Source: an uncultured Verrucomicrobiaceae bacterium
Lineage (GTDB): Bacteria; Verrucomicrobiota; Verrucomicrobiia; Verrucomicrobiales; Verrucomicrobiaceae
Length of the DNA stretch: 13,946 nt
NCBI GenBank assembly: GCA_964573315.1
Contig: CAZNKC010000146.1
Location: 1-13,946, forward strand
Direction of reading: 5' to 3'
Made by a program: the position numbers and the translations under genes. Shown here one piece after another: positions 362 through 13,907 of this stretch. How positions within the stretch are numbered: position 1 is the first letter of the stretch; each line of letters begins with the position of its first letter. The notes beneath the pieces are model-generated. The model was not told the DNA's origin. It ran no database searches and saw only the letters and a list, made by a program, of their open reading frames with translations.

Positions 362-437
362 CAGATGCGGGCAAGATGCCAAATGCCGCGGCGGCTCATC
401 CTTGACGCCGGTCACTTGTCAGACAATAGTGACTGAC

Positions 438-674
438 ATGACGACCACCATTCGCGAATTTCAAAGGCAGTTCCGGAAAATCCGGCAACGGGCCAAGGCC
501 GGCGAGGAAATCCTCGTCACCGACGCCAGCGGCGTCACCTATTCTTTCAAGGCCAAGCGCACCGCCTCCGCCAGCTTTGCCGAAAAGGCCGCCGACCTGA
601 TCGGTTCCTACCGGTCAGAGAAAGGCGACATCGCCTCCAACCCGGAACACCTGAGCGGTTATGGCGGCTCGTGA
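438..674 (+). CDS. vapB: Type II antitoxin, VapB/Phd-like (about 78 aa). The ORF track begins at TTG 402; the first ATG is 438.
   Basis: The N-terminus MTTTIREFQRQFRKIRQRAKAGEEILVTDASGVTYSF matches the antitoxin pattern of Phd/YefM- and VapB-type proteins (TxxExRxxxxxxxxxxxxGExvxIT). It overlaps the downstream PIN-toxin start by 14 nt (ATGGCGGCTCGTGA), the typical TA operon layout. Confidence 0.7.
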   Translation: MTTTIREFQRQFRKIRQRAKAGEEILVTDASGVTYSFKAKRTASASFAEKAADLIGSYRSEKGDIASNPEHLSGYGGS

Positions 675-1080
675 GCATCTGCTGGATGCCGGGCCGTTGG
701 TCGCCCTTTTTGACGCCTCGGACCGGGATCACGCCTGGGCCGTGAAAACGGTCGGAAAGTTGCGCGCGCCACTCATCACCTGTGAAGCCGCTCTTTCCGA
801 GGCTCTTTTCCTTCTTCGCGGAGATCCCGCCGCCCCCCGCAAGGTGGGCGCGCTTTTTGAGCGGGAACTCCTCATCTGCCATCCCATCATGAACAGCGAG
901 GCCGCCGCCGTTCTGGCCTTGATGCAAACCTATCAGGACGTTCCCATGTCGCTCGCCGACGCCTGTTTGGTCCGCCTTTCCGAAATCATCCCGGCCTCCA
1001 CCGTGGTCACCCTGGATTCCAATTTTTCCATCTACCGCCGGCACCGGCGCAAGCCCATCCCTGTGGTGTCACCGCATTGA
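661..1080 (+). CDS. vapC: PIN-domain ribonuclease toxin VapC (139 aa)
   Basis: LLDAGPLVALFDASDRDHAWA is the PIN N-terminal beta1 with a conserved Asp. Further acidic positions are in CEAALSEALF, SLADACLVRLSE and VVTLDSNF. The size is about 140 aa and the gene is translationally coupled to the upstream antitoxin. Confidence 0.85.
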   Translation: MAAREHLLDAGPLVALFDASDRDHAWAVKTVGKLRAPLITCEAALSEALFLLRGDPAAPRKVGALFERELLICHPIMNSEAAAVLALMQTYQDVPMSLADACLVRLSEIIPASTVVTLDSNFSIYRRHRRKPIPVVSPH

Positions 1081-1175
1081 AGCAACCCGGTTTCGCCTGT
1101 TCAGCATACAGCAGTCCCATGAACCCACCACAAAAACGCCAAGAACATGCCAACCCCGGCCCGGCGTACGGGCCG

Positions 1176-1979
1176 ATGCGGACGCTTTCCTATTACCTGT
1201 GGCAATGGGCGGACAATGACACGACCGGCCCGCCGGACGAGATCGTCTCCCGCCTTCTGGCGGGAAAGATGCACGCGGCCATTGAGGACTTTGACCCGGC
1301 GGAATTGCTCGCTTGTCTCGAAAAAGGAGCCGAGGCCGGACGGACGCAAGGCGAGCATTGGGAATGGCAGGTGATCCCCAATCGGGACAAAAACCGCGCC
1401 GCCACCGTCTTTCTCACCGGCGAAGCGCCGGAGGGGCTGCACTGCCATCAAATCCAAATGGCGCGCGAGTTGTGGTCGCTGCTGCTGGCCCGGCACATGA
1501 ATATCCATTCAGACTGCGAATCGCTCTGGATGGGGCCACACCTAAAACGAAACCATTTCAAAACCGGACAAGATGTGGTGGAATTTGACGTGGACGAAAA
1601 AGACATCCGTATTCTACTCCTAACATTGAGACGCTCCTTGAAAAACCCCTTTGCCCTCCTGGAAAATCGAAAAGGCGAATTTGTGCAGTGCTACCTGGAG
1701 AAACGCCGACGCTATGTACTGGAGTGGCGGCAATGGCATGTGCCGCTTTGCGATGACACCAACGAAGGTTACTACAGCCATTGGCGGCTCATGGACCAAC
1801 AGAGACTGGCCGCCTTGACACCGGAACAACGAAGCCGGGCAGATACGGTGGAGGTGCCTGACGACCAAGAACCCGACTTGGTGCCTTTCTCGCTGGTGGT
1901 GGAGGCATTTCAAGCCTTCATTCGCGGCGAGCCGCCGCCGCGCCTGGAGCACTGGCGGCTCATCAATGCCGAAATATGA
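1176..1979 (+). CDS. Hypothetical protein, paralog A of an unrecognised family with a conserved N-terminal SYYLWQWADND motif (about 267 aa from ATG 1176). The ORF track extends to TTG 1077, and an alternative ATG lies at 1119.
   Basis: Long ORF with protein-like composition. It is clearly homologous end to end with the next gene (N-terminal SYYxWxWADNDxxGxPDE...MHxAIxxFDP...GExWxWQ and C-terminal AxQAFxxxEPxP...EW). Its stop overlaps the next gene's start (ATGA at 1976-1979). Confidence 0.75.
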   Translation: MRTLSYYLWQWADNDTTGPPDEIVSRLLAGKMHAAIEDFDPAELLACLEKGAEAGRTQGEHWEWQVIPNRDKNRAATVFLTGEAPEGLHCHQIQMARELWSLLLARHMNIHSDCESLWMGPHLKRNHFKTGQDVVEFDVDEKDIRILLLTLRRSLKNPFALLENRKGEFVQCYLEKRRRYVLEWRQWHVPLCDDTNEGYYSHWRLMDQQRLAALTPEQRSRADTVEVPDDQEPDLVPFSLVVEAFQAFIRGEPPPRLEHWRLINAEI

Positions 1980-2842
1980 CCGCCAGCTACTATTTTTGGA
2001 AATGGGCCGACAACGACCTGCCCGGCCGTCCGGATGAAGTCCACGCCAGCCTGCTGCGCGGCCGGATGCACCCGGCCATCCAGCCCTTTGACCCGTCGCC
2101 ACTGGTGAAGCTGTTGCAGAAGGATGCCGCGCGCGGTCGGGAGAAGGGCGAGGAGTGGGACTGGCAGATTGTATGGGAACAAGAGCCACGCCACGCCAAG
2201 TTTGTGTTTGTGACACTGCCCACCCCGCCTTCAACTGAGCCTGAAAAAAACAGGATGGCACGCCGCTATTTGCGCCAAGTTGTTTTTGGTTGGTCTGGAG
2301 AATCGCGCACGGATTTCGCCGGCTCGCTGCCAAAGCAGAACGTCTGGCTCCCAGGAGGCGGCTCTCCATGTGTTTGGGATCCTTCCACGGCGGATTTGCC
2401 CCGCTTGATAAAGGACCTCGGCCCGTCTGGTGAGAAAGGTCATGCCATGCTGATGAACCACAAAAACGACTATGTCCAGATCGCGGCGCTGCGTGGAAGA
2501 TTCACCGTGGAATGGAGGGACGCCGACTATATGAAATCGTGGGATGCGTTTGAGCATTGGCATCTTCGCTATCGGACACCCGCCAGAACCTTGAAAGGCC
2601 GGGCTATCCAACGGCGGTTTGTTCCAGATGGCCTGCCGATCGTTCGGAATTACAAAGGGAAATGGTTTTATCGCCTGACCCAGTCCCACGAATTCGAGCT
2701 AATCTGCCCTTCCGACGTGCTGGCTTTGCTGCAAGCCTTCATGCACCGGGAACCGCGTCCGTCTTTCTTCGAATGGGTTTCTCTCACCGAGGAAATGAAG
2801 CATCGCCCTGCCGATTACATGCCTTGGAACGACGACTTTTAA
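1976..2842 (+). CDS. Hypothetical protein, paralog B of the same family (288 aa). Starts MTASYYFWKWADNDLPGRPDE.
   Basis: Homologous to paralog A over its full length, with a longer middle region. The ATG at 1976 overlaps the upstream stop in a 4-nt ATGA arrangement typical of translational coupling. Confidence 0.8.
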   Translation: MTASYYFWKWADNDLPGRPDEVHASLLRGRMHPAIQPFDPSPLVKLLQKDAARGREKGEEWDWQIVWEQEPRHAKFVFVTLPTPPSTEPEKNRMARRYLRQVVFGWSGESRTDFAGSLPKQNVWLPGGGSPCVWDPSTADLPRLIKDLGPSGEKGHAMLMNHKNDYVQIAALRGRFTVEWRDADYMKSWDAFEHWHLRYRTPARTLKGRAIQRRFVPDGLPIVRNYKGKWFYRLTQSHEFELICPSDVLALLQAFMHREPRPSFFEWVSLTEEMKHRPADYMPWNDDF

Positions 2843-2852
2843 ATACGAAGCA

Positions 2853-3677
2853 ATGTCCCTCATCCCCCATCCTGAAATCCAGCGCCTCATGGAGCTGAAC
2901 GCCGAATTGCGCGCCGAGCTGGCTGACTTGCTGGCCCATGCGCATGATCTCGTGCGCACCGTGCGTCCAAACCTGCTGGCGATCTACCAGTCGAAGCTGG
3001 GCGCATGGGAGCTGGAGAAGCTGAAAGCGCAGTTCCGCGTGGCGCGGCTGAAGCGGGTGATCGAGCTGGCACAGGCCAGCCTGAACCGGGGCGCGCCGCC
3101 GGACATGGGGCAGATCGAAGCGCAGGTGCGCGAGGAGCAGGTGCTGTGGGAGGTCAAGCTCAAGGAGAAGGCGGACAAACTGCAAAATGCGGAGCATCTT
3201 CTGGCAAACCAGCTTTCCCGCAAGGACAGCGCGGAGTTCAAGAAGCTCTACCATCAACTCGTGAAGCAACTGCACCCGGACCTGCACCCTGATCAGGATC
3301 AGGCCGCGCGCCATCTCTGGCAGCAAGTGCAGGATGCCTACGATGCGGGTGATCTGGAAGGGTTGCGCGCGCTCGCGCTCCTGCAGCATGAGCCGGAGAA
3401 AACCGCCGCCATTTCCGACTCGCTGGAAAAGCTGCAAGCGGAATACGCATTGCTGGAAAAACGCATCGCGGAACTGGAAGCGAGGATCAAGCAAATCGCG
3501 AGCGAGCCGCCTTTCACCTTTGAAGATGACCTGCAAAACGAGGCCTGGGTGGTCATGCGGCGTACCGCCTTGGAAAAAGAGACACAGCCGTTGCAAGAGC
3601 AGTCCGCCGCGTTAGAGAAGCACCTGCAAACCCTCATCCCTCCGCATGTCCCAGGAATCCAGTTTGGTCTCAATTGA
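2853..3677 (+). CDS. J-domain (DnaJ-like) coiled-coil protein, 274 aa. The J-domain is internal at about nt 3225-3375 with a duplicated HPD (LHPDLHPD).
   Basis: FKKLYHQLVKQLHPDLHPDQDQAARHLWQQVQDAYDAGDLEGL matches J-domain helix II, the HPD loop and helix III (KxxYxxLxxxxHPD ... F/WxxxxxAY). The flanking regions are heptad-like and Leu/Glu/Lys/Ala-rich (ELEARIKQ, LEKLKAQF). It starts 10 nt after paralog B ends. Confidence 0.8.
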   Translation: MSLIPHPEIQRLMELNAELRAELADLLAHAHDLVRTVRPNLLAIYQSKLGAWELEKLKAQFRVARLKRVIELAQASLNRGAPPDMGQIEAQVREEQVLWEVKLKEKADKLQNAEHLLANQLSRKDSAEFKKLYHQLVKQLHPDLHPDQDQAARHLWQQVQDAYDAGDLEGLRALALLQHEPEKTAAISDSLEKLQAEYALLEKRIAELEARIKQIASEPPFTFEDDLQNEAWVVMRRTALEKETQPLQEQSAALEKHLQTLIPPHVPGIQFGLN

Positions 3678-4050
3678 TCCCGCGCTGCTGGCGCTCATCC
3701 ACGGCAGCTTCGGCGGAGATGGGGCGCTGCTGCCCTTTGCCAAGGAGATCATGCTTATCGAATGCCTGATCGCCGGCACCAGCCACCTCGACTTGGCGGA
3801 GGTGGCGCCGGGGCTGCTGCCCGGCACGCTGCTGGTGCTCAAACGCGAGCCGCAAAACCCGCACGACGCGCTGGCGATCATGATTTTCACCGAGGCCGGG
3901 CATCATCTGGGCTACATCCCGCGCGCCAAAAACGAAGCCGTCGCCCGCCTGATGGATGCCGGGAAACTCTTGTTCGGACGCCTTGAGTCCAAGGAATGGC
4001 AGGGCGCGTGGTTGAAGGCTCAGATGCGCGTCTTCATGCGGGATTTTTGA
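3646..4050 (+). CDS. Standalone HIRAN-domain protein (134 aa from ATG 3646). The true start could be an internal TTG or GTG, since it overlaps the upstream gene by 32 nt.
   Basis: CLIAGTSHLDL...LLPGTLLVLKREPQNPHDALAIMIFTEAGHHLGYIPRAKNEAVARLMDAG matches the HIRAN consensus (GxxxhxxxxxLxxGxxLxLxREPxNPxDxNAIxV...GxxLGYVPRxxNxxLAxLMD). Confidence 0.8.
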   Translation: MSQESSLVSIDPALLALIHGSFGGDGALLPFAKEIMLIECLIAGTSHLDLAEVAPGLLPGTLLVLKREPQNPHDALAIMIFTEAGHHLGYIPRAKNEAVARLMDAGKLLFGRLESKEWQGAWLKAQMRVFMRDF

Positions 4051-4239
4051 GGAGCCTTCCGCTTCCTGAGAAACGATGAACCGCTCCCTGCTGGGGATCA
4101 TTCAGATTGCCCGTGAAATCCCGATTTGAACGCGCCAAACCCGTTCATGGCTGAGGAACAGCCATCCCGCAGAATGCCCGCCGGGTTCCATCGATGAGCA
4201 TTGGACGGGAGAAAAACATGGCATTTTCTCCTGAACACG

Positions 4240-4551
4240 ATGAATGCCGCCACCATGACCACGCCGCTGGGATTGCCCCGCGAGCTTTTCTGGGACGTAA
4301 ACCCGGAGATGCTCGATGCGGACACCCACGCCGCCCAAATCATCGGGCGGGTGGTGGAGCGCGGCTCCCTCGCGGCTTGGCACACAGTACGCCGCCATTA
4401 CGGAGATGCCCGCATGATCCAGGCAGTCACCACTTTGCGCGATCTCAGCCCGCGGGCGGTGAGCTTGTGTTGCGTGGCCTTCAACCTTAAACGAGAGGAT
4501 TTCCGATGCTGCACCGCGAGGCCCTTCCCCCCGGCGCCCTGGGTTTACTGA
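4240..4551 (+). CDS. Small hypothetical protein (about 103 aa from ATG 4240; the ORF track starts at TTG 4201). Family not recognised.
   Basis: A good RBS, GGGAGAaaaacATG, lies directly upstream of 4240. The composition is protein-like (LFWDVNPEMLDADTHAAQIIGRVVERGSLAAWHTVRRHYG). It lies convergent to the giant gene. Confidence 0.55.
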   Translation: MNAATMTTPLGLPRELFWDVNPEMLDADTHAAQIIGRVVERGSLAAWHTVRRHYGDARMIQAVTTLRDLSPRAVSLCCVAFNLKREDFRCCTARPFPPAPWVY

Positions 4552-4688
4552 CGGCGCTCTGCGCGCATCCGGCGCTCGCGGCTTGGATAGTGGCGCAACC
4601 ATCTTGGTTGCGCGGGCAAGCTGGAAGCTTGCCCCACCTTTTGCTCCGCGCCGCCTACCGCCCTCGAAAAAAATGGGAGAAAATATAA
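4506..4688 (+). CDS. Possible small ORF (60 aa, Ala/Leu-rich). Alternatively it is the frameshifted C-terminal continuation of the 4240-4551 gene.
   Basis: It overlaps the previous ORF by 46 nt in a different frame, and the overlap contains a C6 homopolymer at 4526-4531. The low-complexity sequence lowers confidence that it is an independent gene. Confidence 0.3.
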   Translation: MLHREALPPGALGLLTALCAHPALAAWIVAQPSWLRGQAGSLPHLLLRAAYRPRKKWEKI

Positions 4689-4702
4689 TTCCTCCCTCCA
4701 CT

Positions 4703-7700
4703 CTACTTCCGCTTCAACGTCGGTTGCTCCACCTTCGACTCCACCGCCACCGGTAATTCCTCTTTTTCGGATTTCGGGCTTCGGGCTTCCGAACTTTCCT
4801 CCACCGGCATCACCTTGATCTCCACGTTCACCGGCACTGCGCGCAGGCCGTCGATGATCGCGCTCAATCGCTCCACCGTCACATCCGCCAGCGTCGCGGG
4901 CTGGGCCTGCTGCGCTCTCGCCGCTTCCAGGGTTTCCTGAATGCGCTCCAGCCCCACCGTGAACGCGCTCAGGTGGCCGCCGATGCGCGCCACCGGGTCG
5001 TCCTCGCCCGCGCCGCCGGTGAGCAGGTTGCGACCGAAAGTCTTGCGGATGTTTTCCCAGCGCCCGGCGTCCTCCGCGGTCAGGCGGTTCGTGATCTCGC
5101 GCCACTTGAGCAGGTTCGCCTCCGCGGCTTGGCTCAGCGTCTGGCTTTCGCCGCGATAGTGATCTTCGATCAGACCATCCACCTCCTGCATCGTCATCAG
5201 CGGCCGCACTTTTTCCGCAATGCGGTTCATGTTACGATAGGAGCCTTGCAGCTTGAACGGCGGCTCGGTGCGATAGGCGTCCTCGGTGGCGGCGCTGCGG
5301 ATGTACTCCTGATTCACGCGCAGAATGACCTCCCGCACCTTGAGCAGGCGCTCCATCACCTCGATGGCCTCCTGCATTTCGTCCGCGCCGTGGTTGGCCT
5401 CGAATTCCGTGTCCTCCTGGCTGCCGGTCACGGCGATCTTCAAAGCGGTGAGCGCGTCCTTGTGGCTGCGCGCGGCGATGCGCGACAGCGCGCTGTTGCT
5501 GGTGAGGCAGTTCTCGATGTAGCTGTCCTTGAACGCCTCCTCGTGGCCGCCGAGGATGTCGCCCAGATTGTAGGTGTCGGCACGGTTCGCCAGCATGTCC
5601 GGCACCTGGAACTTGCCGCCCACTTCGGTATAAGGGTTGCCCGCCATCACCACCGCCACCTTGCGCCCGCGCAGGTCATAAGTACGCGCCACGCCGCGAA
5701 ACACGCCCTCGATGCGCCGCTGACCGTCGCAGAGTGGGATGAACTTCTGCAAGAACTCGGGATTGCAGTGCTGGATGTCGTCCAGATAAATCATCACGTT
5801 GTCCCCCATCTCCAGGGACAGGTTCAGCTTCTCGATCTCCTGGCGCGCGCTGAGGTTCGGCGCTTCCGCCGGATCGAGCGAGGTCACCAGATGCCCGATG
5901 GCCGGGCCGTTGATTTTCACCAACGTGATGCCGAGCCGGTTCGCCACGTATTCCATCAGCGTGGTCTTGCCGTAACCGGGCGGCGAGATCAACATTAAGA
6001 GGCCCATGCGATCCGTGCGCGTGTCCGCGCCCACCGCGCCGATCTGTTTCGCCAGATTGGCCCCGATGATCGGCAGGTACACTTGGTCGATCAATCGGTT
6101 GCGCACAAAGGAACTCAGCAACCCGGCCCTGAACTCCTCCAGCCGCAGCTCCGCGCGCCGTTTCACCAGCACCTCGTGCTTGCGCTTGATAAACGCCTCA
6201 TAACGCGGCGCCACCTGCGTCACATGCCGCGACAAGCGCAGCATGAACTCGTGATAATCCAGTGTCATCCCACCCTGTTCGATGCGCGAATGCGCGCCCG
6301 TGAAGCCTTTAATCTCCATCCGCGACGGCGCTTCATGCGGCAGGTTCAGCGGCGGATCGTCATGCAGCACCAGCAGCGCCGCGGCCTCCGCCCGCGTGCC
6401 GCTCTCCGTCTCCGGGTGCAAACGCAGCAGCCATTCCAGCGCGATCTCGAACGCCAGCCAGGGCTGCTTTTCCAGCGAGCGCAAAGTCTCCTCAAAATCA
6501 GACGCCGCCCGTTTCACCGTCAGTTCCTTCCGAAACGCCCGCACCAATTCCGCCGCCGCGTGCGAACGCGAAAACGGCAACGACGGATGCTTCGCGTCAA
6601 GCTGCATCAGTTCATCAGAGAGGCAGGCGGCCGCATGGAGCGCCGACGATTCGTCGGCATTGCCACAATGAATTCCGACGACTCGTCGGATCTCCCCAAC
6701 AAGCACCGCATCCACCTCCACCCCACCACCGTCAACCAGCCGCGCCAGCCGCCCGCGCGCCCGCATCCGCGCCGCCACCGCTTGTTTCTCCGGTCCATCC
6801 TCCCAAGCCTGCCAGCAAATCAACGCCAGCCCGCGCGCCAGCGGCGCATGACGCAACAAGCCCAAATAGACCCGCATCTCCGCCAGCGGCTGCGCCAGCA
6901 GCGCCGCGTCGTGATCGTGAACGCCCTTGGTGTAGCCCTCGTGAAACCGCTCCGCCATGAACTTCTGAATGGCCTCCAGCCGCGCCGCTTCATCGGCATC
7001 CGCAAACCCGCGCAAAGCCTCCATGCCCTGCGCCGCCAAGCTTTCCACCCAGCGATACGCCAGATACTCCGCGCGATACACCTCCCGCGTCTCCGCCACC
7101 GACTCCAGCTCCCACACATCCCGCAGCGCGTCGAGTTCCGTGTCCTCCACCTTCTCGTAAAAGCGTGTGCCCGTCAGGTGAAACCACAAGCCGCCCTCGC
7201 GCGTCAGCATCGTCAACTCCAACGGCTGCCGGTTCACCGTGAACCGATGCTGTCCAAGCTGGATGAGATCGCCGCCCTCCACAAACAACTCCGCTTTGTC
7301 GCGAATCTGCTTCACCGCTTCCTCGCGCAGCGTCTTGAAGCGCGTGGCGATCTCGTCCGCGCGCACGCTGTCGCCCAGCGCGCGCAAGTCCTCGATCAAA
7401 TCCCGCGCCTTCACCGCCATCGCGTCCGTGGCCAGATAGGAATGCGCCTCCTCTGCCGTGGATAGCGTGGCCAGACGATTTCGCACGCTGGCCAGCACGC
7501 GCTCCGCCGCCTGCGCCAGCGCCTGGCTGCGCCGGTTGCGCGCCTCCACCAGTGATTGCCGCCGCGCGTCAAACGCCGCCTGCGTCTCCTCGCGACGCCG
7601 AATCAATTCCTCGGCAAAGCCCTCGAAATCCCCAAACCGACCCTCCAACTCCTCGATGCGCACCATCATGCGAGTCATCGCCTCATCGCACTTGTCCGGC

Positions 7701-9817
7701 GTGTCGCACAGCTCGATCTGGCTCACCACCGCCTGCTTGAGCAGATTCAACTGCGCGTGAAACTCCGCCGCGCCCTCGCTCTTCGCCATTTCGTCACGCC
7801 GCGCTTTCACCAGCGACCGCGCCTGGTTCAAGCGCGCGAATAAAGCCGAGATGTTTTCCGTGATGCGCGTCGTCTCCGTGGCGTCTCGAATCGTCAAGGA
7901 ACTCACCACGCTGATGAGCAATTCCAAATCCGTGCTGGTCTCCCGCAACGCCGTGTCCAGTTCGTCCGCCTCGGTGACCTTCGCCACCGCCGCCAGCCGC
8001 CCTTGCTGCTCCGCGATCTGCTTTTCATACGGCGCCAGCGACTCCGCTTGCAGCAGGAACTCCGTGCAACGCCCGCCCAGCGCGTCCGTTGCCTCAGCCA
8101 CTTCCGCGTCCAGCGCCGTCAGCGCCGCCTCATCCACATAGCGCGTCTCCCGCGCCGCGATGATCTTCCCGCGCAACTCGCGCAGCACCGCCAGCCCTTT
8201 GACAAATCCCTGAATTTCCCCATGCCGCGCCGAATCCGCCTCCCGCACCGCGCGCCGCGTCTCCTCCGTCAAGCCCGCCACCTGCTCCGCCGCCGCCGCG
8301 CGCAGCCGCCGCACCTTTTCAAACTCCCCGAGCGCCGACTCCGCCGCGCCCTTGATCAAAAGCAGCGTCTCGCGCAGCCCGCGCGCCTCCGCCTTGTCCA
8401 GCCAGAAATAACTGTCCGTGATGTCCCCGGTGATCCGCGCCAGCTCCACGTACAGCCCCGAGTAACTGTCATCCTTGCCCAACAGCGTCAGCACCCCGCG
8501 GCACTCCGCCATGCAGCGCACGATCTCCGCGTTGCCGATCTTCCCCAGCAGGCTGTCCGCGTGCTCCCCCGCCGCCTGCTGATCCGCCACGAACGGCGTC
8601 TGCCAGGCCTGCACCGCGTGATGCTTGCGCGGCTCGTTCTCGCCGTTGAGCACCACCAGCTCGCCGTTTTGAAACAAGGCAAACCCGTGGCTGATGATCG
8701 GCGTCGCCAGCTTTTGCTCCACCAGATTGTAGGACAGCAGCAGATAGGTGCCGCTTTCCAAATGATCGAACGCATAGAGCGTGTCCTCGCCGTTCGCCGA
8801 GGTGATCTTGCGCTCGAACCGCAGCGGCGGCAGGCCGGTGTCAAACGTCCGCACCTCGCCGGTTTGCAGCACATAACCACGCGGAAACAAAATGCCGTGC
8901 CCGTCCGGCAGCAACACGCAACTCTCCGCGATGCCATCCAGCCGCGTCACCTCCTGCGTGCGCTGGTTGAAGACCAGATAACGCCACGTCTTCTCCTGAT
9001 ACGGCAGGATTTTGAGCAGGATCAGATTGCCCAGGATCGCGTAATGATACTCCGCGTCGTCGAGAATTTGATCCCTGTTGTCCACCGGCTCCGAGTAAAT
9101 GCCCGCGCCCGTGCTGGTGTTGTCCTCCACCTTCACCGTCAGATCGCCGCCCACCGTCTCCACAAACACCCGGTCCTCGATCGACACATGCGGATGCGTG
9201 CCGTGGCGGTAAGCCTCGGGCCGCGCCCGCTTCCACTCGAACTCGTGCGACGGCGGATAGACGAACTCGTGATCGAAACGGTTGCCCAGGTACTCCAGCG
9301 TCCCCTTGTCCGTGTCCACCCGCCACTTGAACGCCTTCACCTCCGTCACGTCCCGTCCCACCTGGAACACCATGTAGAGCGAGTTCAGCGTGCGATGAAA
9401 CTTCAAAAAGCTCGCCGCCTTGTAGTAGCGGAACAGATAATCAAAATCCTCCGTAAACGCCTTGTCCTCCAGCAGCCCCTCCTTGTTCGGATGGAAACTG
9501 TGATCGGAGGGATCGTAATCATAGACCGCAAACAGATCCTCGGGATGAAGCTGCGACTTCAACCCCAGCACTACGTTGTAACCGAACACAAACCGCTTCG
9601 GCCCGATGCCCGACATGTCCCGCGGCACGCAGTTGTGCTCCGTCGTCAGCCGCGCCGTGGACAGCAGGCTCGTCTCGATGCCGCCAAAGATCGCCTTGCG
9701 ATCCTCGTTCAGCTTCTCCAGCCGCGCCCGCAACTCCGCCCCCTGCGCGTCCAGCCGCTTGCGAATCACTTCATAAGCGCCGGCTTCAAGTTTGGCTTCT
9801 GGGAGGATGTCGGACAT
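4703..9817 (-). CDS. Giant multidomain protein. The ORF track gives 4703..9832 (1709 aa) via a TTG start; the first ATG gives about 1704 aa. It has an N-terminal beta-rich domain of unknown family, a very long predicted alpha-helical/coiled-coil middle, and a dynein/MoxR-type AAA+ (AAA_5-like) ATPase module near the C-terminus.
   Basis: Uninterrupted 5.1-kb ORF. Walker A LISPPGYGKTTL is encoded by the reverse complement of + coordinates about 5957-5985. Walker B VMIYLDDIQ is at about 5775-5800. The sensor/second-region motif VVMAGNPYTE...LANRADTY resembles the dynein/midasin/MoxR pattern (ATMNP...RF). There are hundreds of residues of Ala/Glu/Arg/Leu-rich helix-type sequence. I cannot assign the protein to a named family. 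Confidence 0.95.
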   Translation of the reverse strand: MSDILPEAKLEAGAYEVIRKRLDAQGAELRARLEKLNEDRKAIFGGIETSLLSTARLTTEHNCVPRDMSGIGPKRFVFGYNVVLGLKSQLHPEDLFAVYDYDPSDHSFHPNKEGLLEDKAFTEDFDYLFRYYKAASFLKFHRTLNSLYMVFQVGRDVTEVKAFKWRVDTDKGTLEYLGNRFDHEFVYPPSHEFEWKRARPEAYRHGTHPHVSIEDRVFVETVGGDLTVKVEDNTSTGAGIYSEPVDNRDQILDDAEYHYAILGNLILLKILPYQEKTWRYLVFNQRTQEVTRLDGIAESCVLLPDGHGILFPRGYVLQTGEVRTFDTGLPPLRFERKITSANGEDTLYAFDHLESGTYLLLSYNLVEQKLATPIISHGFALFQNGELVVLNGENEPRKHHAVQAWQTPFVADQQAAGEHADSLLGKIGNAEIVRCMAECRGVLTLLGKDDSYSGLYVELARITGDITDSYFWLDKAEARGLRETLLLIKGAAESALGEFEKVRRLRAAAAEQVAGLTEETRRAVREADSARHGEIQGFVKGLAVLRELRGKIIAARETRYVDEAALTALDAEVAEATDALGGRCTEFLLQAESLAPYEKQIAEQQGRLAAVAKVTEADELDTALRETSTDLELLISVVSSLTIRDATETTRITENISALFARLNQARSLVKARRDEMAKSEGAAEFHAQLNLLKQAVVSQIELCDTPDKCDEAMTRMMVRIEELEGRFGDFEGFAEELIRRREETQAAFDARRQSLVEARNRRSQALAQAAERVLASVRNRLATLSTAEEAHSYLATDAMAVKARDLIEDLRALGDSVRADEIATRFKTLREEAVKQIRDKAELFVEGGDLIQLGQHRFTVNRQPLELTMLTREGGLWFHLTGTRFYEKVEDTELDALRDVWELESVAETREVYRAEYLAYRWVESLAAQGMEALRGFADADEAARLEAIQKFMAERFHEGYTKGVHDHDAALLAQPLAEMRVYLGLLRHAPLARGLALICWQAWEDGPEKQAVAARMRARGRLARLVDGGGVEVDAVLVGEIRRVVGIHCGNADESSALHAAACLSDELMQLDAKHPSLPFSRSHAAAELVRAFRKELTVKRAASDFEETLRSLEKQPWLAFEIALEWLLRLHPETESGTRAEAAALLVLHDDPPLNLPHEAPSRMEIKGFTGAHSRIEQGGMTLDYHEFMLRLSRHVTQVAPRYEAFIKRKHEVLVKRRAELRLEEFRAGLLSSFVRNRLIDQVYLPIIGANLAKQIGAVGADTRTDRMGLLMLISPPGYGKTTLMEYVANRLGITLVKINGPAIGHLVTSLDPAEAPNLSARQEIEKLNLSLEMGDNVMIYLDDIQHCNPEFLQKFIPLCDGQRRIEGVFRGVARTYDLRGRKVAVVMAGNPYTEVGGKFQVPDMLANRADTYNLGDILGGHEEAFKDSYIENCLTSNSALSRIAARSHKDALTALKIAVTGSQEDTEFEANHGADEMQEAIEVMERLLKVREVILRVNQEYIRSAATEDAYRTEPPFKLQGSYRNMNRIAEKVRPLMTMQEVDGLIEDHYRGESQTLSQAAEANLLKWREITNRLTAEDAGRWENIRKTFGRNLLTGGAGEDDPVARIGGHLSAFTVGLERIQETLEAARAQQAQPATLADVTVERLSAIIDGLRAVPVNVEIKVMPVEESSEARSPKSEKEELPVAVESKVEQPTLKRK

Positions 9818-9843
9818 GATTGGTAGCGGCAACGATTTTTTAG

Positions 9844-9908: not shown

Positions 9909-11006
9909 TCATTTCACGGGTGGCGTCGCAGATTCAGAGTGAGGAATAGCCACCACCGGCTCCCGGCCGCGCGCGATCAACGCGATCTTTTTTTGCTGCG
10001 GCTGAAGAATGCAAATCTGGCTGCTCCCAAGTTGAAACACCACCGAGTCATTCTCCAAATGAGTGGCATTTCTGACCCGCCAAGCTGTAAAGGGAGTCTC
10101 GATAGAGAATCGAAAGCGAGATTCATCCAACAGATTCCTCCCTGAAATTCCCTCTACCGCCATAAATCCTGCCCGGTAAACCCAAGGAGTAGCTGGATTG
10201 AATCGAGGAGCTTCGCCAGTCAGTCCAGCTCCTGAACGAATCGGTCTTGCGCTATCCTGGGAGGTTGAATCGGCAACTAGGGATGCAAAATCTTCCACCA
10301 ATATCTTTTCCCTACTTCCGCCCGATGACCGTTCATCAAAGTAAACTCCAAGGTCAAAACGTCCGTCCTTGCGGGCAACAGGAAAGAGCCAACTGGCTTT
10401 CCGTTTGTCACCAATAGCCACGACAAGTTGTGCATCGCCGCCGTCAAGGCCGATGCGCAATACTTCATCGCCTTTCTTTGAGATAAAATAAATCTCATGC
10501 GGAGACTCCGGCGCGATCTCATGCGCATCGACCATTTGAAGCTCGGTTACAAGGCTCGCCGAACTCAGGAACACATACCCGGCGACCAAGACCAAATAAC
10601 TCGCCAGATGCACCAGCACCGTGGCTTTTAGGGCAGACGTCACCCGGTTTGCTCGACGTAATACGACCCGGAAAAACGGCAATTCAATCGCGAGTGTAAT
10701 GACGAATGCGCCAAACAGCATCACCACAAACCAGCTTCGGAGGTTTTCAATGGTCACAAAGCTGGGAGTCATCACAGGAAGCAATGTGAAACCAACCCAG
10801 GCCGAAACATAATTCGCAAGGATGATCAAAGGAGCGGCGGTTTTGATTTTCGCGCCAAAAAACCGCGATAGAAGCCATGCCTCAAACAAGCCAATGACGG
10901 CATTCCCCAAGACAAGATGCAGCATCTCCGCCCACACCAAAGTTGTCCCGACATTCGCGAGAAACACGGGAAAGGCCATTGGGGATGATTGGAAATCGAG
11001 AGGCAT
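9909..11006 (-). CDS. Polytopic membrane protein (365 aa). About five N-terminal TM helices plus a C-terminal soluble domain of roughly 200 aa, probably extracytoplasmic. Family not recognised. Visibly lower GC than its neighbours.
   Basis: ATG at 11006. Hydrophobic segments FPVFLANVGTTLVWAEMLHLVLGNAVIGLF, APLIILANYVSAWVGFTLLPV, WFVVMLFGAFVITLAIELPFF and VLVHLASYLVLVAGYVFL. It sits on the same strand as the giant gene, 76 nt upstream of it. Confidence 0.85.
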   Translation of the reverse strand: MPLDFQSSPMAFPVFLANVGTTLVWAEMLHLVLGNAVIGLFEAWLLSRFFGAKIKTAAPLIILANYVSAWVGFTLLPVMTPSFVTIENLRSWFVVMLFGAFVITLAIELPFFRVVLRRANRVTSALKATVLVHLASYLVLVAGYVFLSSASLVTELQMVDAHEIAPESPHEIYFISKKGDEVLRIGLDGGDAQLVVAIGDKRKASWLFPVARKDGRFDLGVYFDERSSGGSREKILVEDFASLVADSTSQDSARPIRSGAGLTGEAPRFNPATPWVYRAGFMAVEGISGRNLLDESRFRFSIETPFTAWRVRNATHLENDSVVFQLGSSQICILQPQQKKIALIARGREPVVAIPHSESATPPVK

Positions 11007-11105: not shown

Positions 11106-13196
11106 TCACTTCTTCTTCCCACCCAGCACCGCCGCCGCGGGCTGATCCGCCAGATTGAACCGCGATGCCGCGCCGACCAGGCTTTGCAGCTTGTTCAGCG
11201 TCGCCGTGTCCGGCCCCAGGCCCATGAGCCGGCCCAGCAGCGCCGCGACGGTGACGTTTTTCACGTCCTCGCTCGACACGCCGAACTGATCCACCAAGCC
11301 GCGGAGCTGGCCTTTGAAGTATTCGGGGTCGCCGTTGAAGAAGGTTTCCTTCACGTCGGACAGCACCTGGCTGTTCGCCACCAAGCGGTCCACGGCGCGG
11401 CCGTTGCCGATGGCCTGCGTGATCTTGTCGAAGAACTGGCTCTCGCCGCCGACGATCTCGATCTTCGCGGACTTCATGGCCTCGCCCAGCACGCCGGCCT
11501 GGGCTTCGGCGATGTCCTTCTGGATGTGGATCTGCGCCAGTTCCACGGCCTTCTGCTTGTCCAGGTTGAGCTTGAACTCCTCGTGCTCGCGACCGGCTTC
11601 CTCCAGCAGCTTCATGGCCTCCGCCTTGTTGCGGATGCCATCGGCTTCGGAGGCCAGCTTGAGTTGCAGCACTTCGGCATCGACCTGCCCTTGCTTCTGT
11701 GAAGCCTCGGCTTTCGCCAGTTGCACCTTGGCCTCGCCCAAGCCTGGAGCGGCGGTGGTGGCGGAGGTGGCTTCGGCCATGAGTTTTTCCGCCTGGCTTT
11801 CGCGGGCGGCGGCTTCCTGCTTGGCCTCGGCCAGGGTCAGGATCTCCTGAGCGTGCAACTCGGCGGCTTCCTTGGCGGCTTCGGCGGCCTTGGTCTGGTT
11901 GAAGGCATCTTCTTCCGCCTTCAGCTTCGCGGATTCCTTGGCGGCCTCGGCTTCCTTGATCTTCTGAATGAGCTGCTCCTGCGCGGCTTTTTCCGCCAGG
12001 GTGACGGCGACCTGCTTCTCGCGGTCGGCGGTGGCGAAGGCCTCGGTGTCCTTGATCTTCTGCTGCTCGATGACCACGGTTTTTTCCAGCGCCACGCGCT
12101 CTTTGATGACCTCCTGGATGTTCTTCTTCTCGATTTCGACCGCCTTTTCCTTCTCGATGCCCTTGATGGCGGTGACGCGCTCGCGTTCGATCTGCTCCAG
12201 CATCCGGTCACGCTCCACACGCTCCAGTTCGATGCCGTCGGTGCGCTCCTTGTTGCGCATGGCGACGAGGATTTGGCGGTCCTTGTTCTCGGTGGCCACC
12301 GCGATGTCTTCCTCCGCCGCGATGCGGGCGCGTTCCGCCTTCATGCGCTCTTCCTCCTGCACTTTGACCGTCTCTGCCTGCTCGCGCGCTTGCACGCTTT
12401 CGACGTCGCGCTTCTGCTTCGCTTCGGTTTCGGAAAGCTGGCGCTCCAACTCCAGAATCGCCTCACGCGCCTGCACGTCCTGCTGCTTGATGACTTTTTC
12501 TTTGTCGCGCTGGATGTGGTTGGCCAGCTTCGCCTGGGTGGCGGTGAGTTCGGTGATTTTTTTGATGCCTTCGGCGTCCAGAATATTGTCGGGATCGAGG
12601 TTTTCGAGTTGAGTCTGCTCCAGGAAGTCGATGGCGCAATCGTCCAGGGTGAAGCCGTTCAGGTCGGTGCCGATGACCTTCAGGATTTCCTCTTTGAAGT
12701 GGTCGCGCTCATTGTAAAGTTGCACGAAGTCGAAGCGTTTGCCGACGGTTTTAAGAGCCTCGGAGAACTTGGCGTCGAAAAGAGTGCGCAGAGTGTCCAA
12801 AGCGGAAGCGCGGGCGCAGCCGATGGACTGGGCGACGCGTTTCACATCCTCTTCCACCTTGTTGATGCGGACGAAAAAGGCCACCTTGATGTCGGCGCGC
12901 AGGTTGTCCTTGCAGATCAGGCCCTCGTTGGCGCGGCGCTCGATCTCAATGCGTTTGACGGAGATGTCCATGTACTCCGCCTGATGCGCCACCGGGATCA
13001 CCAAAATACCATTGAATGAAACCTTGGTATTGCCGATGCCGTTGCGCACGATGGCCTGTCCCTGCTGCACCTTGCGGAAGAAGCGCGAGAATAAAACGAG
13101 AATGCCCGCGAAGATCGCAATGATGATGACGACCACAAAAACGCTGAGAGAGGAGAGCATATCGGGAAGCAAAGCGAGAGGGAATAGAGTGTGCAT
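11106..13196 (-). CDS. Flotillin-family SPFH/band-7 protein, YqiK-like (696 aa from ATG 13196; an alternative ATG at 13160 puts the TM helix right at the N-terminus). N-terminal membrane anchor, SPFH domain, long Glu/Ala/Lys-rich coiled coil.
   Basis: TM segment LSSLSVFVVVIIIAIFAGILVLF. The SPFH core VRNGIGNTKV...GILVIPVAHQAEYMDISVKRIEIERRANEGLICKDNLRADIKVAFFVRINKVEEDVKRVAQSIG resembles bacterial flotillins (YqiK/FloT). The EA-rich repeats (EAEAAKESAKLKAEEDA...) match the flotillin domain. Confidence 0.93.
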   Translation of the reverse strand: MHTLFPLALLPDMLSSLSVFVVVIIIAIFAGILVLFSRFFRKVQQGQAIVRNGIGNTKVSFNGILVIPVAHQAEYMDISVKRIEIERRANEGLICKDNLRADIKVAFFVRINKVEEDVKRVAQSIGCARASALDTLRTLFDAKFSEALKTVGKRFDFVQLYNERDHFKEEILKVIGTDLNGFTLDDCAIDFLEQTQLENLDPDNILDAEGIKKITELTATQAKLANHIQRDKEKVIKQQDVQAREAILELERQLSETEAKQKRDVESVQAREQAETVKVQEEERMKAERARIAAEEDIAVATENKDRQILVAMRNKERTDGIELERVERDRMLEQIERERVTAIKGIEKEKAVEIEKKNIQEVIKERVALEKTVVIEQQKIKDTEAFATADREKQVAVTLAEKAAQEQLIQKIKEAEAAKESAKLKAEEDAFNQTKAAEAAKEAAELHAQEILTLAEAKQEAAARESQAEKLMAEATSATTAAPGLGEAKVQLAKAEASQKQGQVDAEVLQLKLASEADGIRNKAEAMKLLEEAGREHEEFKLNLDKQKAVELAQIHIQKDIAEAQAGVLGEAMKSAKIEIVGGESQFFDKITQAIGNGRAVDRLVANSQVLSDVKETFFNGDPEYFKGQLRGLVDQFGVSSEDVKNVTVAALLGRLMGLGPDTATLNKLQSLVGAASRFNLADQPAAAVLGGKKK

Positions 13197-13232: not shown

Positions 13233-13907
13233 TCAGTCGGTGTCAGATTCGGAAGCGGAAGCCGGCTCGATATAATACCAAACGCCGTCCGCCGAGGCGC
13301 TGACGACGCGCGCAGCTTCGCCTTTTTGCAGAGGCGGCGCGCCGGGCGCCACGCGGACATTGAGCAGCACCGGCGCTCCCTTGCCGGGGAGTTGCAACTG
13401 CCCGTGGCGCTCGTCCACCGTCGAAGTCGTCACCGTACCGGTCTGTCCGATGACGCTGACGGCCTCCGTGTCGGCATCCGCCATCGCGGCAAACAACCTG
13501 CCGACGGGCAGTGTCACGAGCTTGGTAATCACCAGCCCGATCGCCGACGCAGGGACGAACAACAGCACCGCGCGCCCCATGTCGCGGCTGCCCGGCTCGC
13601 CGTTGTACATGTAATTGAGGATCAGCGCGGCAGTCCAGGTGAAGAGCACCGCAAAACTCCCCCACACCGCAATGGGCACCTTGGCAAACCCCAGCAGCCT
13701 GCCCGCCGCCACCCACGCCCCGCCCAGGGCGGAAGGCCCGTGATGATGCGCGTCGGGTGCGTCCGGCAGGTCCGCACTGTCCAGGATGCTGCTGTCAAAA
13801 TCCGCCCCGCCCAGAACCACCAGCAGCCAATAAAACAGCACCAGCCCCAGCACCAGTGTGGCTGGGAGTTGATGCGCGCTGAAGGCTTCTCGGATGAACT
13901 CCATCAT
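13233..13907 (-). CDS. NfeD-like / YqiJ-like inner-membrane protein (224 aa), the usual partner encoded upstream of flotillin.
   Basis: N-terminal TM helices (LPATLVLGLVLFYWLLVVLGG; VPIAVWGSFAVLFTWTAALILNYMY; AVLLFVPASAIGLVITKLV). The C-terminal beta-rich segment VSVIGQTGTVTTSTVDERHGQLQLPGKGAPVLLNVRVAPGAPPLQKGEAARVVSASADGVWYYIEP is consistent with an NfeD OB-fold. It lies 36 nt upstream of the flotillin gene on the same strand, mirroring the E. coli yqiJ-yqiK and Bacillus nfeD-floT arrangements. Confidence 0.8.
   Translation of the reverse strand: MMEFIREAFSAHQLPATLVLGLVLFYWLLVVLGGADFDSSILDSADLPDAPDAHHHGPSALGGAWVAAGRLLGFAKVPIAVWGSFAVLFTWTAALILNYMYNGEPGSRDMGRAVLLFVPASAIGLVITKLVTLPVGRLFAAMADADTEAVSVIGQTGTVTTSTVDERHGQLQLPGKGAPVLLNVRVAPGAPPLQKGEAARVVSASADGVWYYIEPASASESDTD

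Follow-up and report, generated by a model that had tools for sequence, protein, structure and literature searches.

The question raised by the stretch analysed here, the whole 13,946-bp NCBI contig CAZNKC010000146.1 of an uncultured Verrucomicrobiaceae bacterium (assembly GCA_964573315.1; hereafter the window), is what a giant ATPase encoded on its minus strand does and with which partners it works. A first-pass annotation of this DNA, made from the sequence alone, had described a protein of about 1700 amino acids (aa) with a dynein/MoxR-like AAA+ module near its C-terminus, and had suggested a membrane-associated remodelling or defence ATPase with reference to a membrane-protein gene beside it. 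We found that the real conserved partners of the ATPase are the two genes upstream of that neighbour, encoding a YqiK-type flotillin and a YqiJ-type protein with three transmembrane segments. We regard functional coupling of the ATPase to the flotillin scaffold as highly probable.

Linkage of the ATPase gene to a flotillin and a YqiJ-type protein

The three genes, referred to below as the cassette, are as follows.

4703-9817, minus strand: giant ATPase gene, 1704 aa (ATG at 9817, TAG stop at 4705-4703)
11106-13196, minus strand: YqiK-type flotillin, 696 aa, with an N-terminal transmembrane anchor, an SPFH domain, a long coiled coil and a conserved C-terminal region
13233-13907, minus strand: YqiJ-type (NfeD-like) protein with three transmembrane segments, 224 aa, first gene of the cassette

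In the list of open reading frames (ORFs) and their translations, the ATPase gene is an uninterrupted minus-strand ORF with an alternative in-frame TTG start at 9832; the 1704-aa form starting at the ATG is identical to the product called by NCBI (P0001). The position 4703-9817 given by the first-pass annotation was right and the strand is minus, and the giant protein that it had described is real, with homologues along its full length. A search of the protein collection with the ATPase returned 2821 matches at E ≤ 0.001, the best 120 of which were collinear over about 99-100% of the length, and a representative search gave 710 clusters at 50% identity that carry its N-terminal propeller domain (full-length members of 1600-1900 aa). 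On these grounds the ORF does not owe its length to chance.

Related loci (82) were searched with the proteins of the window, those from the genome scan being the best 80 of at least 586, and linkage was counted on the 60 loci with at least 3 kb of upstream sequence. A flotillin homologue lay upstream and co-oriented in 58 of these 60, accompanied in 49 by a YqiJ-like gene, across phyla that include Verrucomicrobiota, Planctomycetota, Bacteroidota, Desulfobacterota, Clostridia, Myxococcota and Lentisphaeria. The order flotillin-ATPase was also kept in Streptomyces and in Pseudomonas plasmids. Outside the three cassette genes, flanking genes differed even among close relatives.

The 696-aa flotillin is 30% identical to Escherichia coli YqiK (E 8e-48) and its N-terminal 253 aa alone match Band_7 (E 6.4e-11), but a Pfam scan of the full-length protein returned no family even at E ≤ 10, for which we suspect the coiled-coil composition to be responsible. 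Precomputed Pfam entries for the flotillin homologues in related contigs were also empty; automated annotation therefore tends to miss the flotillin link. A PDB sequence search with the flotillin gave no match. Its anchor is N-terminal and consists of two adjacent hydrophobic stretches. Cassette flotillins are highly conserved and mostly 650-725 aa long, as against 553 aa in E. coli, and their conserved C-terminal region fails to align with E. coli YqiK. The 224-aa protein has three hydrophobic segments. It gave nothing against E. coli YqiJ in BLASTP, and a profile of its family was needed to find the relationship (hhalign probability 96.95%, E 1.3e-10 over 184 columns); Pfam YqiJ_N was matched by 11 of the 32 members of this family.

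The inserted membrane-protein gene and the end of the transcription unit

Two further features frame the ATPase gene.

9909-11006, minus strand: 365-aa membrane protein, encoded between flotillin and ATPase genes and foreign to the conserved system
4675-4696, minus strand: terminator-like hairpin with a T-run, a few bases past the ATPase stop, from a consensus scan only

The 365-aa protein has four or five transmembrane segments and a beta-rich C-terminal half, and matched no Pfam family. Because none of the 82 related loci contains a homologue of it, and because it is absent from the closest relative (83% identical, with flotillin and ATPase genes 193 nucleotides (nt) apart) and has a low G+C content at third codon positions (GC3 0.533 vs 0.80-0.83 for the three cassette genes; overall GC 0.517), its gene is a low-GC, lineage-specific insertion. 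It therefore provides no evidence for membrane association of the ATPase. The first-pass annotation had placed this gene 76 nt upstream of the ATPase gene, which is correct from the TTG (91 nt from the ATG), and had asked whether it is always found there. It is not, and its use as support for a membrane role falls away, while a membrane-associated remodelling role remains the best reading on other evidence.

At this intergenic position, one locus (L085) has a PhdYeFM-PIN toxin-antitoxin pair and several Bacteroidota have unrelated small ORFs, some with predicted transmembrane segments. The spacer between flotillin and ATPase genes thus seems to be an insertion hot spot (compare L084, L085, L066, L054 and L020).

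The terminator-like hairpin suggests that the ATPase gene is the last of its transcription unit. The next real gene, at 4201-4551 on the plus strand, encodes a DUF6922 protein (E 6.6e-16) and is convergent with it. A 199-aa minus-strand ORF at 4102-4701, beginning 1 nt after the ATPase stop, was considered as a fourth gene and looks spurious, since its composition is odd, it has no homologue in the related loci, the terminator-like site lies between and DUF6922 lies opposite.

The neighbourhood also bears on a role in anti-phage defence or abortive infection, in which the scaffold and the large NTPase would sense infection and kill or arrest the cell. Defence systems often include large multidomain NTPases that carry repeat domains, a PIN toxin and a HIRAN protein matching the PADLOC candidate PDC-M03B are encoded in the same window, and in one relative a toxin-antitoxin pair is inserted within the cassette. 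We nevertheless consider such a role very unlikely. In agreement with the first-pass annotation, which could not fit the protein to a known defence system, the three cassette proteins and the inserted membrane protein matched none of the PADLOC-DB 2.0 models at E ≤ 0.01. The annotation's own suggestion of a defence function fared less well: there was no match in 50,697 phage records, only 13 of 72,556 plasmid records matched (mostly megaplasmids, or chromosomes filed as plasmids), and the flanks are ordinary and variable between genomes. We detected no nuclease, TIR, protease or pore domain that could act as an effector, and the AAA core is highly conserved across phyla, which would set it apart from fast-evolving defence genes.

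The AAA+ core

The catalytic module and its motifs map to the window as follows.

5498-6109, minus strand: AAA+ core, aa 1237-1440, alpha/beta
5960-5986, minus strand: Walker A, SPPGYGKTT
5771-5794, minus strand: Walker B, MIYLDDIQ
5672-5728, minus strand: beta hairpin just before the sensor-1 strand
5570-5638, minus strand: sensor-1 NPYTE to the LANRAD arginine
5225-5263, minus strand: invariant PPFKLQGSYRNMN motif, candidate sensor 2 (invariant columns R1516-M1530)

The AAA+ fold is nearest to those of MoxR, midasin and dynein, with Walker A and B, sensor 1 and the arginine finger intact, and its closest structural relatives are CbbQ and NorQ. Pfam matches to AAA_5 and AAA at aa 1274-1397 were weak (27-31 bits) but exceeded the gathering cut-offs. 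In a collinear alignment of 24 diverse members, down to about 31% identity, Walker A, Walker B (as DD), the sensor-1 Asn, the LANRAD Arg and QGSYRNM were invariant, and the AAA core was by far the most conserved part of the protein, with 59-71% identity to the most distant members vs 17-35% elsewhere. From the invariant catalytic residues and the conservation of the core we infer that the protein is probably an active ATPase. The PPFKLQGSYRNMN motif is put forward as sensor 2 by its likeness to the lid motif of MoxR ATPases.

The motifs quoted in the first-pass annotation were all found, SPPGYGKTT at aa 1278-1286, MIYLDDIQ at aa 1342-1349 and NPYTE...LANRADTY at aa 1394-1416. The module does not begin about 1,190 aa into the protein, as had been stated; the core starts at about aa 1237 and the Walker A lysine is residue 1284.

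The database records raise a role in DNA repair. Pfam describes DUF3686, the N-terminal family of this protein, as 'ATPase involved in DNA repair', the NCBI product name is 'DNA repair ATPase', and the P-loop bears a weak local resemblance to RuvB (23 bits, some 50-75 residues). A PDB sequence search with the ATPase likewise gave only P-loop-level matches, to RuvB and p97. Against NCBIfam cut-offs of 282 and 299, the RuvB scores reach only 22-23 bits, and the similarity does not extend beyond the P-loop region. Searches for DNA-binding, nuclease, SMC, SbcC and RecN domains came up empty, and the conserved neighbours are membrane proteins. We give a repair function hardly any credence, and the database name is an annotation artefact. 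It presumably arose from a false coiled-coil match to the SbcC-type COG 'ATPase involved in DNA repair'.

Domain architecture outside the AAA+ core

Two AlphaFold2 models were built on 49-sequence alignments, one of aa 1-900 (mean predicted local distance difference test score, pLDDT, 85.2) and one of aa 841-1704 (mean pLDDT 84.6). Together with the core they delimit the following regions.

9686-9784, minus strand: N-terminal long helix, aa 12-44 (model m74df07a25da9, pLDDT about 79-94)
8588-9673, minus strand: beta-propeller, the core of Pfam DUF3686, aa 49-410 (all-beta in the model, pLDDT about 90)
7283-8587, minus strand: first helical region, aa 411-845 (DSSP on the model; helices of up to about 58 residues)
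7118-7282, minus strand: small beta domain, aa 846-900 (in both models; strands at 851-889)
6110-7117, minus strand: second helical domain, beta hairpin and long pre-AAA helix, aa 901-1236 (model m5806ce2e9ad7)
4898-5497, minus strand: helical insert, lid and C-terminal helical domain, aa 1441-1640 (from the model)
4706-4897, minus strand: C-terminal tail, aa 1641-1704, with the lowest conservation in the protein

The N-terminal part matched DUF3686 (PF12458) at aa 28-471, or positions 8405-9736 of the window, with E 4e-176 and 586.4 bits vs a cut-off of 25, covering positions 1-448 of the 448 in the profile. Counting of predicted strands in the model indicated about seven four-stranded blades, and the Foldseek matches of the first model in the PDB were all propellers (Elp1 WD40, clathrin terminal domain, IFT-A, paraoxonase and prolyl oligopeptidase). 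DYDPSDHSFHP and FKWRVDTDKGTLEY, quoted in the first-pass annotation, both lie within this beta-rich domain. A clathrin/IFT-like 'protocoatomer' architecture was considered and set aside: Foldseek TM-scores were low (0.08-0.17), the propeller alone explains the matches and the helices form long bundles, not a solenoid.

Between the propeller and the AAA+ module lie about 800 aa, instead of the roughly 600-aa helical middle described before, comprising two helical regions with the small beta domain between them. In the model, long helices of the first region span aa 417-844, and this region contains a match to DUF7902 (PF25472) at aa 593-676 (window 7790-8041; E 5e-23, 81 bits). Invariant residues of the small beta domain in alignment A2 are G855, F859, N862, Q864, H880, G883 and T884. 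The portion at aa 901-1236 is the least conserved structured part of the ATPase and was modelled with pLDDT mostly > 90; it consists of the second helical domain (about aa 915-1150) and a hairpin with a long helix (aa 1188-1224). The last 50 or so residues of the C-terminal tail, from about aa 1658, are predicted to be disordered (pLDDT < 50 in AlphaFold2).

No PspA, SMC or SbcC match was obtained in the helical region with Pfam even at E ≤ 10. A PspA-like middle region, as implied by the JGI label 'phage shock protein A' on two homologues, was accordingly rejected, no PspA_IM30 match being found for the helical segments at that threshold. Pfam detected no vWA, nuclease, protease or DNA-binding domain in the ATPase, and no transmembrane or hydrophobic segment was found in it. 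The lack of a vWA/MIDAS domain at the C-terminus, noted in the first-pass annotation, was borne out by Pfam and by the AlphaFold models. That annotation was largely correct in its reading of the domains, yet the architecture that it could not place is that of a full-length member of the Pfam combination DUF3686, DUF7902 and AAA, and its operon has been described (PMC11237479).

Distribution, naming and extended operons

The best 120 homologues share the same set of Pfam families in collinear order, with DUF7902 in the middle and a single C-terminal AAA. In the genome scan, relatives occurred in at least 586 species genomes of Verrucomicrobiota, Planctomycetota, Bacteroidota, Desulfobacterota, Clostridia, Myxococcota, Lentisphaeria and Fibrobacterota-like metagenome-assembled genomes. 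Searches with tblastn against plasmid records added Streptomyces, Nonomuraea, Deinococcus, Pseudomonas, Proteus, Vibrio, Photobacterium and Halomonas. Where the sources give these proteins a name, it is mostly 'DNA repair ATPase', a product name that is widespread and misleading and whose propagation is inadvisable.

Variation within the family was noted for homologues P0303, P0130, P0258 and P0370. The first of these (1950 aa) additionally bears HEAT-repeat Pfam families, and in P0130 and P0258 the propeller domain begins at about residues 410-670, pointing to long extensions at the N-terminus. A 1711-aa member with 49% identity in a eukaryotic protein set (EukProt g33011.t1) could reflect contamination or gene transfer.

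This operon was described computationally in 2024, with a proposed role in sub-membrane dynamics (PMC11237479). That paper reports no experiments and gives the ATPase a sentence or two, a supplement to it does not mention a propeller, YqiJ or DUF3686, and it notes a wider distribution for abbreviated operons, which lack PspA (PMC11237479). We matched our ATPase to the one described there by reproducing the operon, not by accession number. The window has the abbreviated form, with the flotillin and the YqiJ/YuaF-type protein with three transmembrane segments. The CesT/Tir-PspA dyad of the full form was not found in it, the contig ending 39 nt upstream of the yqiJ-like gene; PspA and CesT/Tir genes were also absent in close relatives with long contigs.

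Fuller versions were recovered elsewhere. In 14 Bacteroidota loci a conserved, PspA-like gene cluster precedes the cassette, and in Leeuwenhoekiella the cassette is preceded by genes for CesT_Tir_1 (E 1.6e-56) and then PspA_IM30 (E 2e-41), with a divergent regulator of the helix-turn-helix (HTH)-S24 type. Plasmid pQBR103 of Pseudomonas fluorescens SBW25 encodes, in this order, YjfI, PspA, rhomboid, DUF2491, DUF350, DUF1190, a glutathionylspermidine-synthase-like protein, a hypothetical protein, SPFH and 'DNA repair ATPase', and in Streptomyces the order is a hypothetical protein, flotillin and 'DNA repair ATPase'. The pQBR103 locus (L086, positions 84437-97641) is a ten-gene version that combines polyamine-linked genes of the yjfI-pspA-yjfKLM type and a rhomboid protease with a gene in the YqiJ position, SPFH and the ATPase. 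Apart from PspA, CesT/Tir-like and HTH genes upstream in Bacteroidota, no recurrent extra neighbour was seen in the related loci.

To the published account the present analysis adds the linkage, quantified at 58 of 60 loci, the assignment of the propeller and the AAA+ clade by structure, the foreign origin of the neighbouring membrane-protein gene and the case that the 'DNA repair' label is unfounded.

A proposed role in remodelling of sub-membrane assemblies

We think that the protein probably acts in the cytosol as the ATPase of a membrane cassette of three genes (yqiJ-like, long yqiK-like flotillin and propeller-AAA+) and remodels sub-membrane assemblies. SPFH proteins form large membrane-attached cages, as in HflK/C, QmcA-YbbJ and flotillin-1/2, and HflK/C encloses the AAA+ protease FtsH (PMC11348225, PMC13086221). 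By analogy with these, the YqiJ-type protein and the flotillin would assemble into an SPFH cage or scaffold at the inner membrane, on its cytoplasmic side. The AAA+ module may assemble the ATPase into a ring, in line with other MoxR-type ATPases, and the helical arms would hold out the propellers, which would bind the conserved C-terminal region of the flotillin and, where present, PspA. Hydrolysis of ATP would then remodel, disassemble or recycle scaffold assemblies during membrane or envelope stress, a function comparable to that of Vps4 on ESCRT-III or of the AAA+ proteins with which other SPFH proteins are paired. We infer each of these elements: the scaffold, ring formation, propeller docking and remodelling. 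More tentatively, the flotillin cage itself may be the substrate and the ATPase its dedicated disassembly or remodelling motor, as Vps4 and NSF are for their own substrates; we hold this narrower version to be doubtful, if a serious possibility.

The ATPase might instead be a client-directed segregase or chaperone that extracts, unfolds or assembles other membrane-associated proteins or cofactor complexes, in the manner of CbbQ, NorQ or HflK/C-FtsH, with the flotillin and YqiJ-type protein serving only to recruit or confine it at membrane microdomains. Its nearest structural relatives, CbbQ and NorQ, are hexameric, client-remodelling chaperones, SPFH cages are known to corral AAA+ proteins acting on other substrates (HflK/C with FtsH), and propellers are generic protein-binding platforms. 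Set against this, no conserved fourth gene stands beside the cassette as a client, there is no vWA adaptor, the ATPase has neither a transmembrane segment nor a protease domain, and the flotillin is conserved with it far more tightly than any other neighbour. On this evidence we judge a separate client unlikely.

Several observations weigh against remodelling of the flotillin scaffold as the role of the ATPase. Linkage of the genes speaks for functional coupling and not for a substrate, and the flotillin might be a mere anchor or regulator. The oligomeric state, the contact between propeller and flotillin and the ATPase activity are predicted. Canonical MoxR ATPases work with vWA partners, none of which is present here, and the Walker B motif reads DD in place of the usual DE. 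Two of the 60 loci (L022 and L056) have no adjacent flotillin gene. The flotillin operon of E. coli works without such an ATPase, and that of Bacillus subtilis (yuaF-floT) presumably does likewise. Our literature searches found no experimental work on the ATPase family, no papers for the Pfam name DUF3686 or accession PF12458, no paper linking 'DNA repair ATPase' to flotillin and, among the papers listed, none linking it to SPFH/PspA.

If the ATPase is nonetheless the dedicated motor of flotillin cages, flotillin microdomains in many bacterial phyla would be dynamic, ATP-regulated compartments, and a soluble, non-proteolytic AAA+ protein would join the recurring SPFH-AAA+ pairings (HflK/C-FtsH, prohibitin/m-AAA and erlin/p97). 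The function of bacterial flotillins is still unresolved (PMC13086221). The family gives them a conserved and enzymatically tractable partner in hundreds of species, in which the Walker A lysine, the propeller and the arms are open to mutation, trapping and imaging, so that whether SPFH cages are actively remodelled, and by what, becomes testable. The well-studied megaplasmid pQBR103 offers a convenient experimental entry point.

Other genes in the window

The remaining genes named here lie on the plus strand.

402-674, plus strand: 90-aa ORF, at most faintly Phd/YefM-like (E 0.21)
661-1080, plus strand: PIN-domain (VapC-like) gene (E 1.6e-06), overlapping the preceding ORF
1077-1979 and 1976-2842, plus strand: overlapping tandem paralogues
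2853-3677, plus strand: coiled-coil protein, directly after the paralogue pair
3646-4050, plus strand: 134-aa HIRAN-domain protein (E 1.4e-16), overlapping the preceding gene

The first two are a probable toxin-antitoxin pair. The tandem paralogues are 29% identical to each other (E 9e-33) and share an N-terminal YY(L/F)W(Q/K)WADND motif; neither matched Pfam, NCBIfam or PADLOC. The coiled-coil protein has a sub-threshold match to the DnaJ domain (27.4 vs 27.8 bits), and the HIRAN protein matched six models of the PADLOC candidate PDC-M03B (best E 4e-11). The four genes at 1077-4050 may form a separate unit, perhaps one related to defence.

Comparison with known systems

The ATPase shares its type of AAA+ module with the MoxR class (CbbQ, NorQ and RavA, with midasin and dynein as relatives; Pfam AAA_5/AAA_3). 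MoxR proteins are about 250-500 aa long and have a vWA/MIDAS partner, whereas the 1704 aa of the ATPase include a propeller and about 800 aa of helices ahead of the module; its Walker B is DD, and it has a flotillin as its conserved partner in place of a vWA protein. No VWA match was obtained in the ATPase or its neighbours in the window.

With HflK/C-FtsH the cassette has in common an SPFH scaffold paired with an AAA+ machine at the membrane. FtsH belongs to the classical AAA+ clade, has transmembrane helices and an M41 protease and is enclosed by the cage; the ATPase is soluble, non-proteolytic and of MoxR type, having no hydrophobic segment and no peptidase domain. Any physical contact within the cassette is deduced from gene order alone. 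Other SPFH proteins paired with AAA+ proteins are known, namely prohibitin with the m-AAA protease, SLP2 with YME1L and erlin with p97.

The first two cassette genes are homologous to yqiJ-yqiK of E. coli and yuaF-floT of B. subtilis (30% identity to YqiK; 96.95% for the YqiJ profile). Unlike in the cassette, no ATPase gene follows yqiK in E. coli, and the cassette flotillins are about 130-170 aa longer than E. coli YqiK.

The resemblance to Vps4/ESCRT-III, and to CdvC/CdvB, is one of function only, an AAA+ protein being genetically linked to a membrane-remodelling polymer; PspA, a member of the ESCRT-III superfamily, occurs in the extended operon (PMC11237479). As to proteins of DNA metabolism, SbcC, RecN and SMC have a head of the ABC type that a long coiled coil divides into an N-terminal part with Walker A and a C-terminal part with the signature and Walker B. 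The ATPase instead has a single contiguous AAA+ module at aa 1237-1440 and an N-terminal propeller, and it gave no Pfam match to SMC, AAA_23 or SbcC. Nor does it qualify as a RuvB equivalog. The ATPase is thus not of the SMC/SbcC, RuvB, FtsH or Vps4 type.

The closest counterpart is the operon of PMC11237479, which has the same components in the same order and whose extended form, CesT/Tir-PspA-YqiJ-flotillin-ATPase, was reproduced in the Leeuwenhoekiella and pQBR103 homologues. The window differs from it in the foreign membrane-protein gene between the flotillin and ATPase genes. The family has already been catalogued and its operon published from computational work in 2024, and the copy described here is an orthologue with an incidental insertion rather than a new system.

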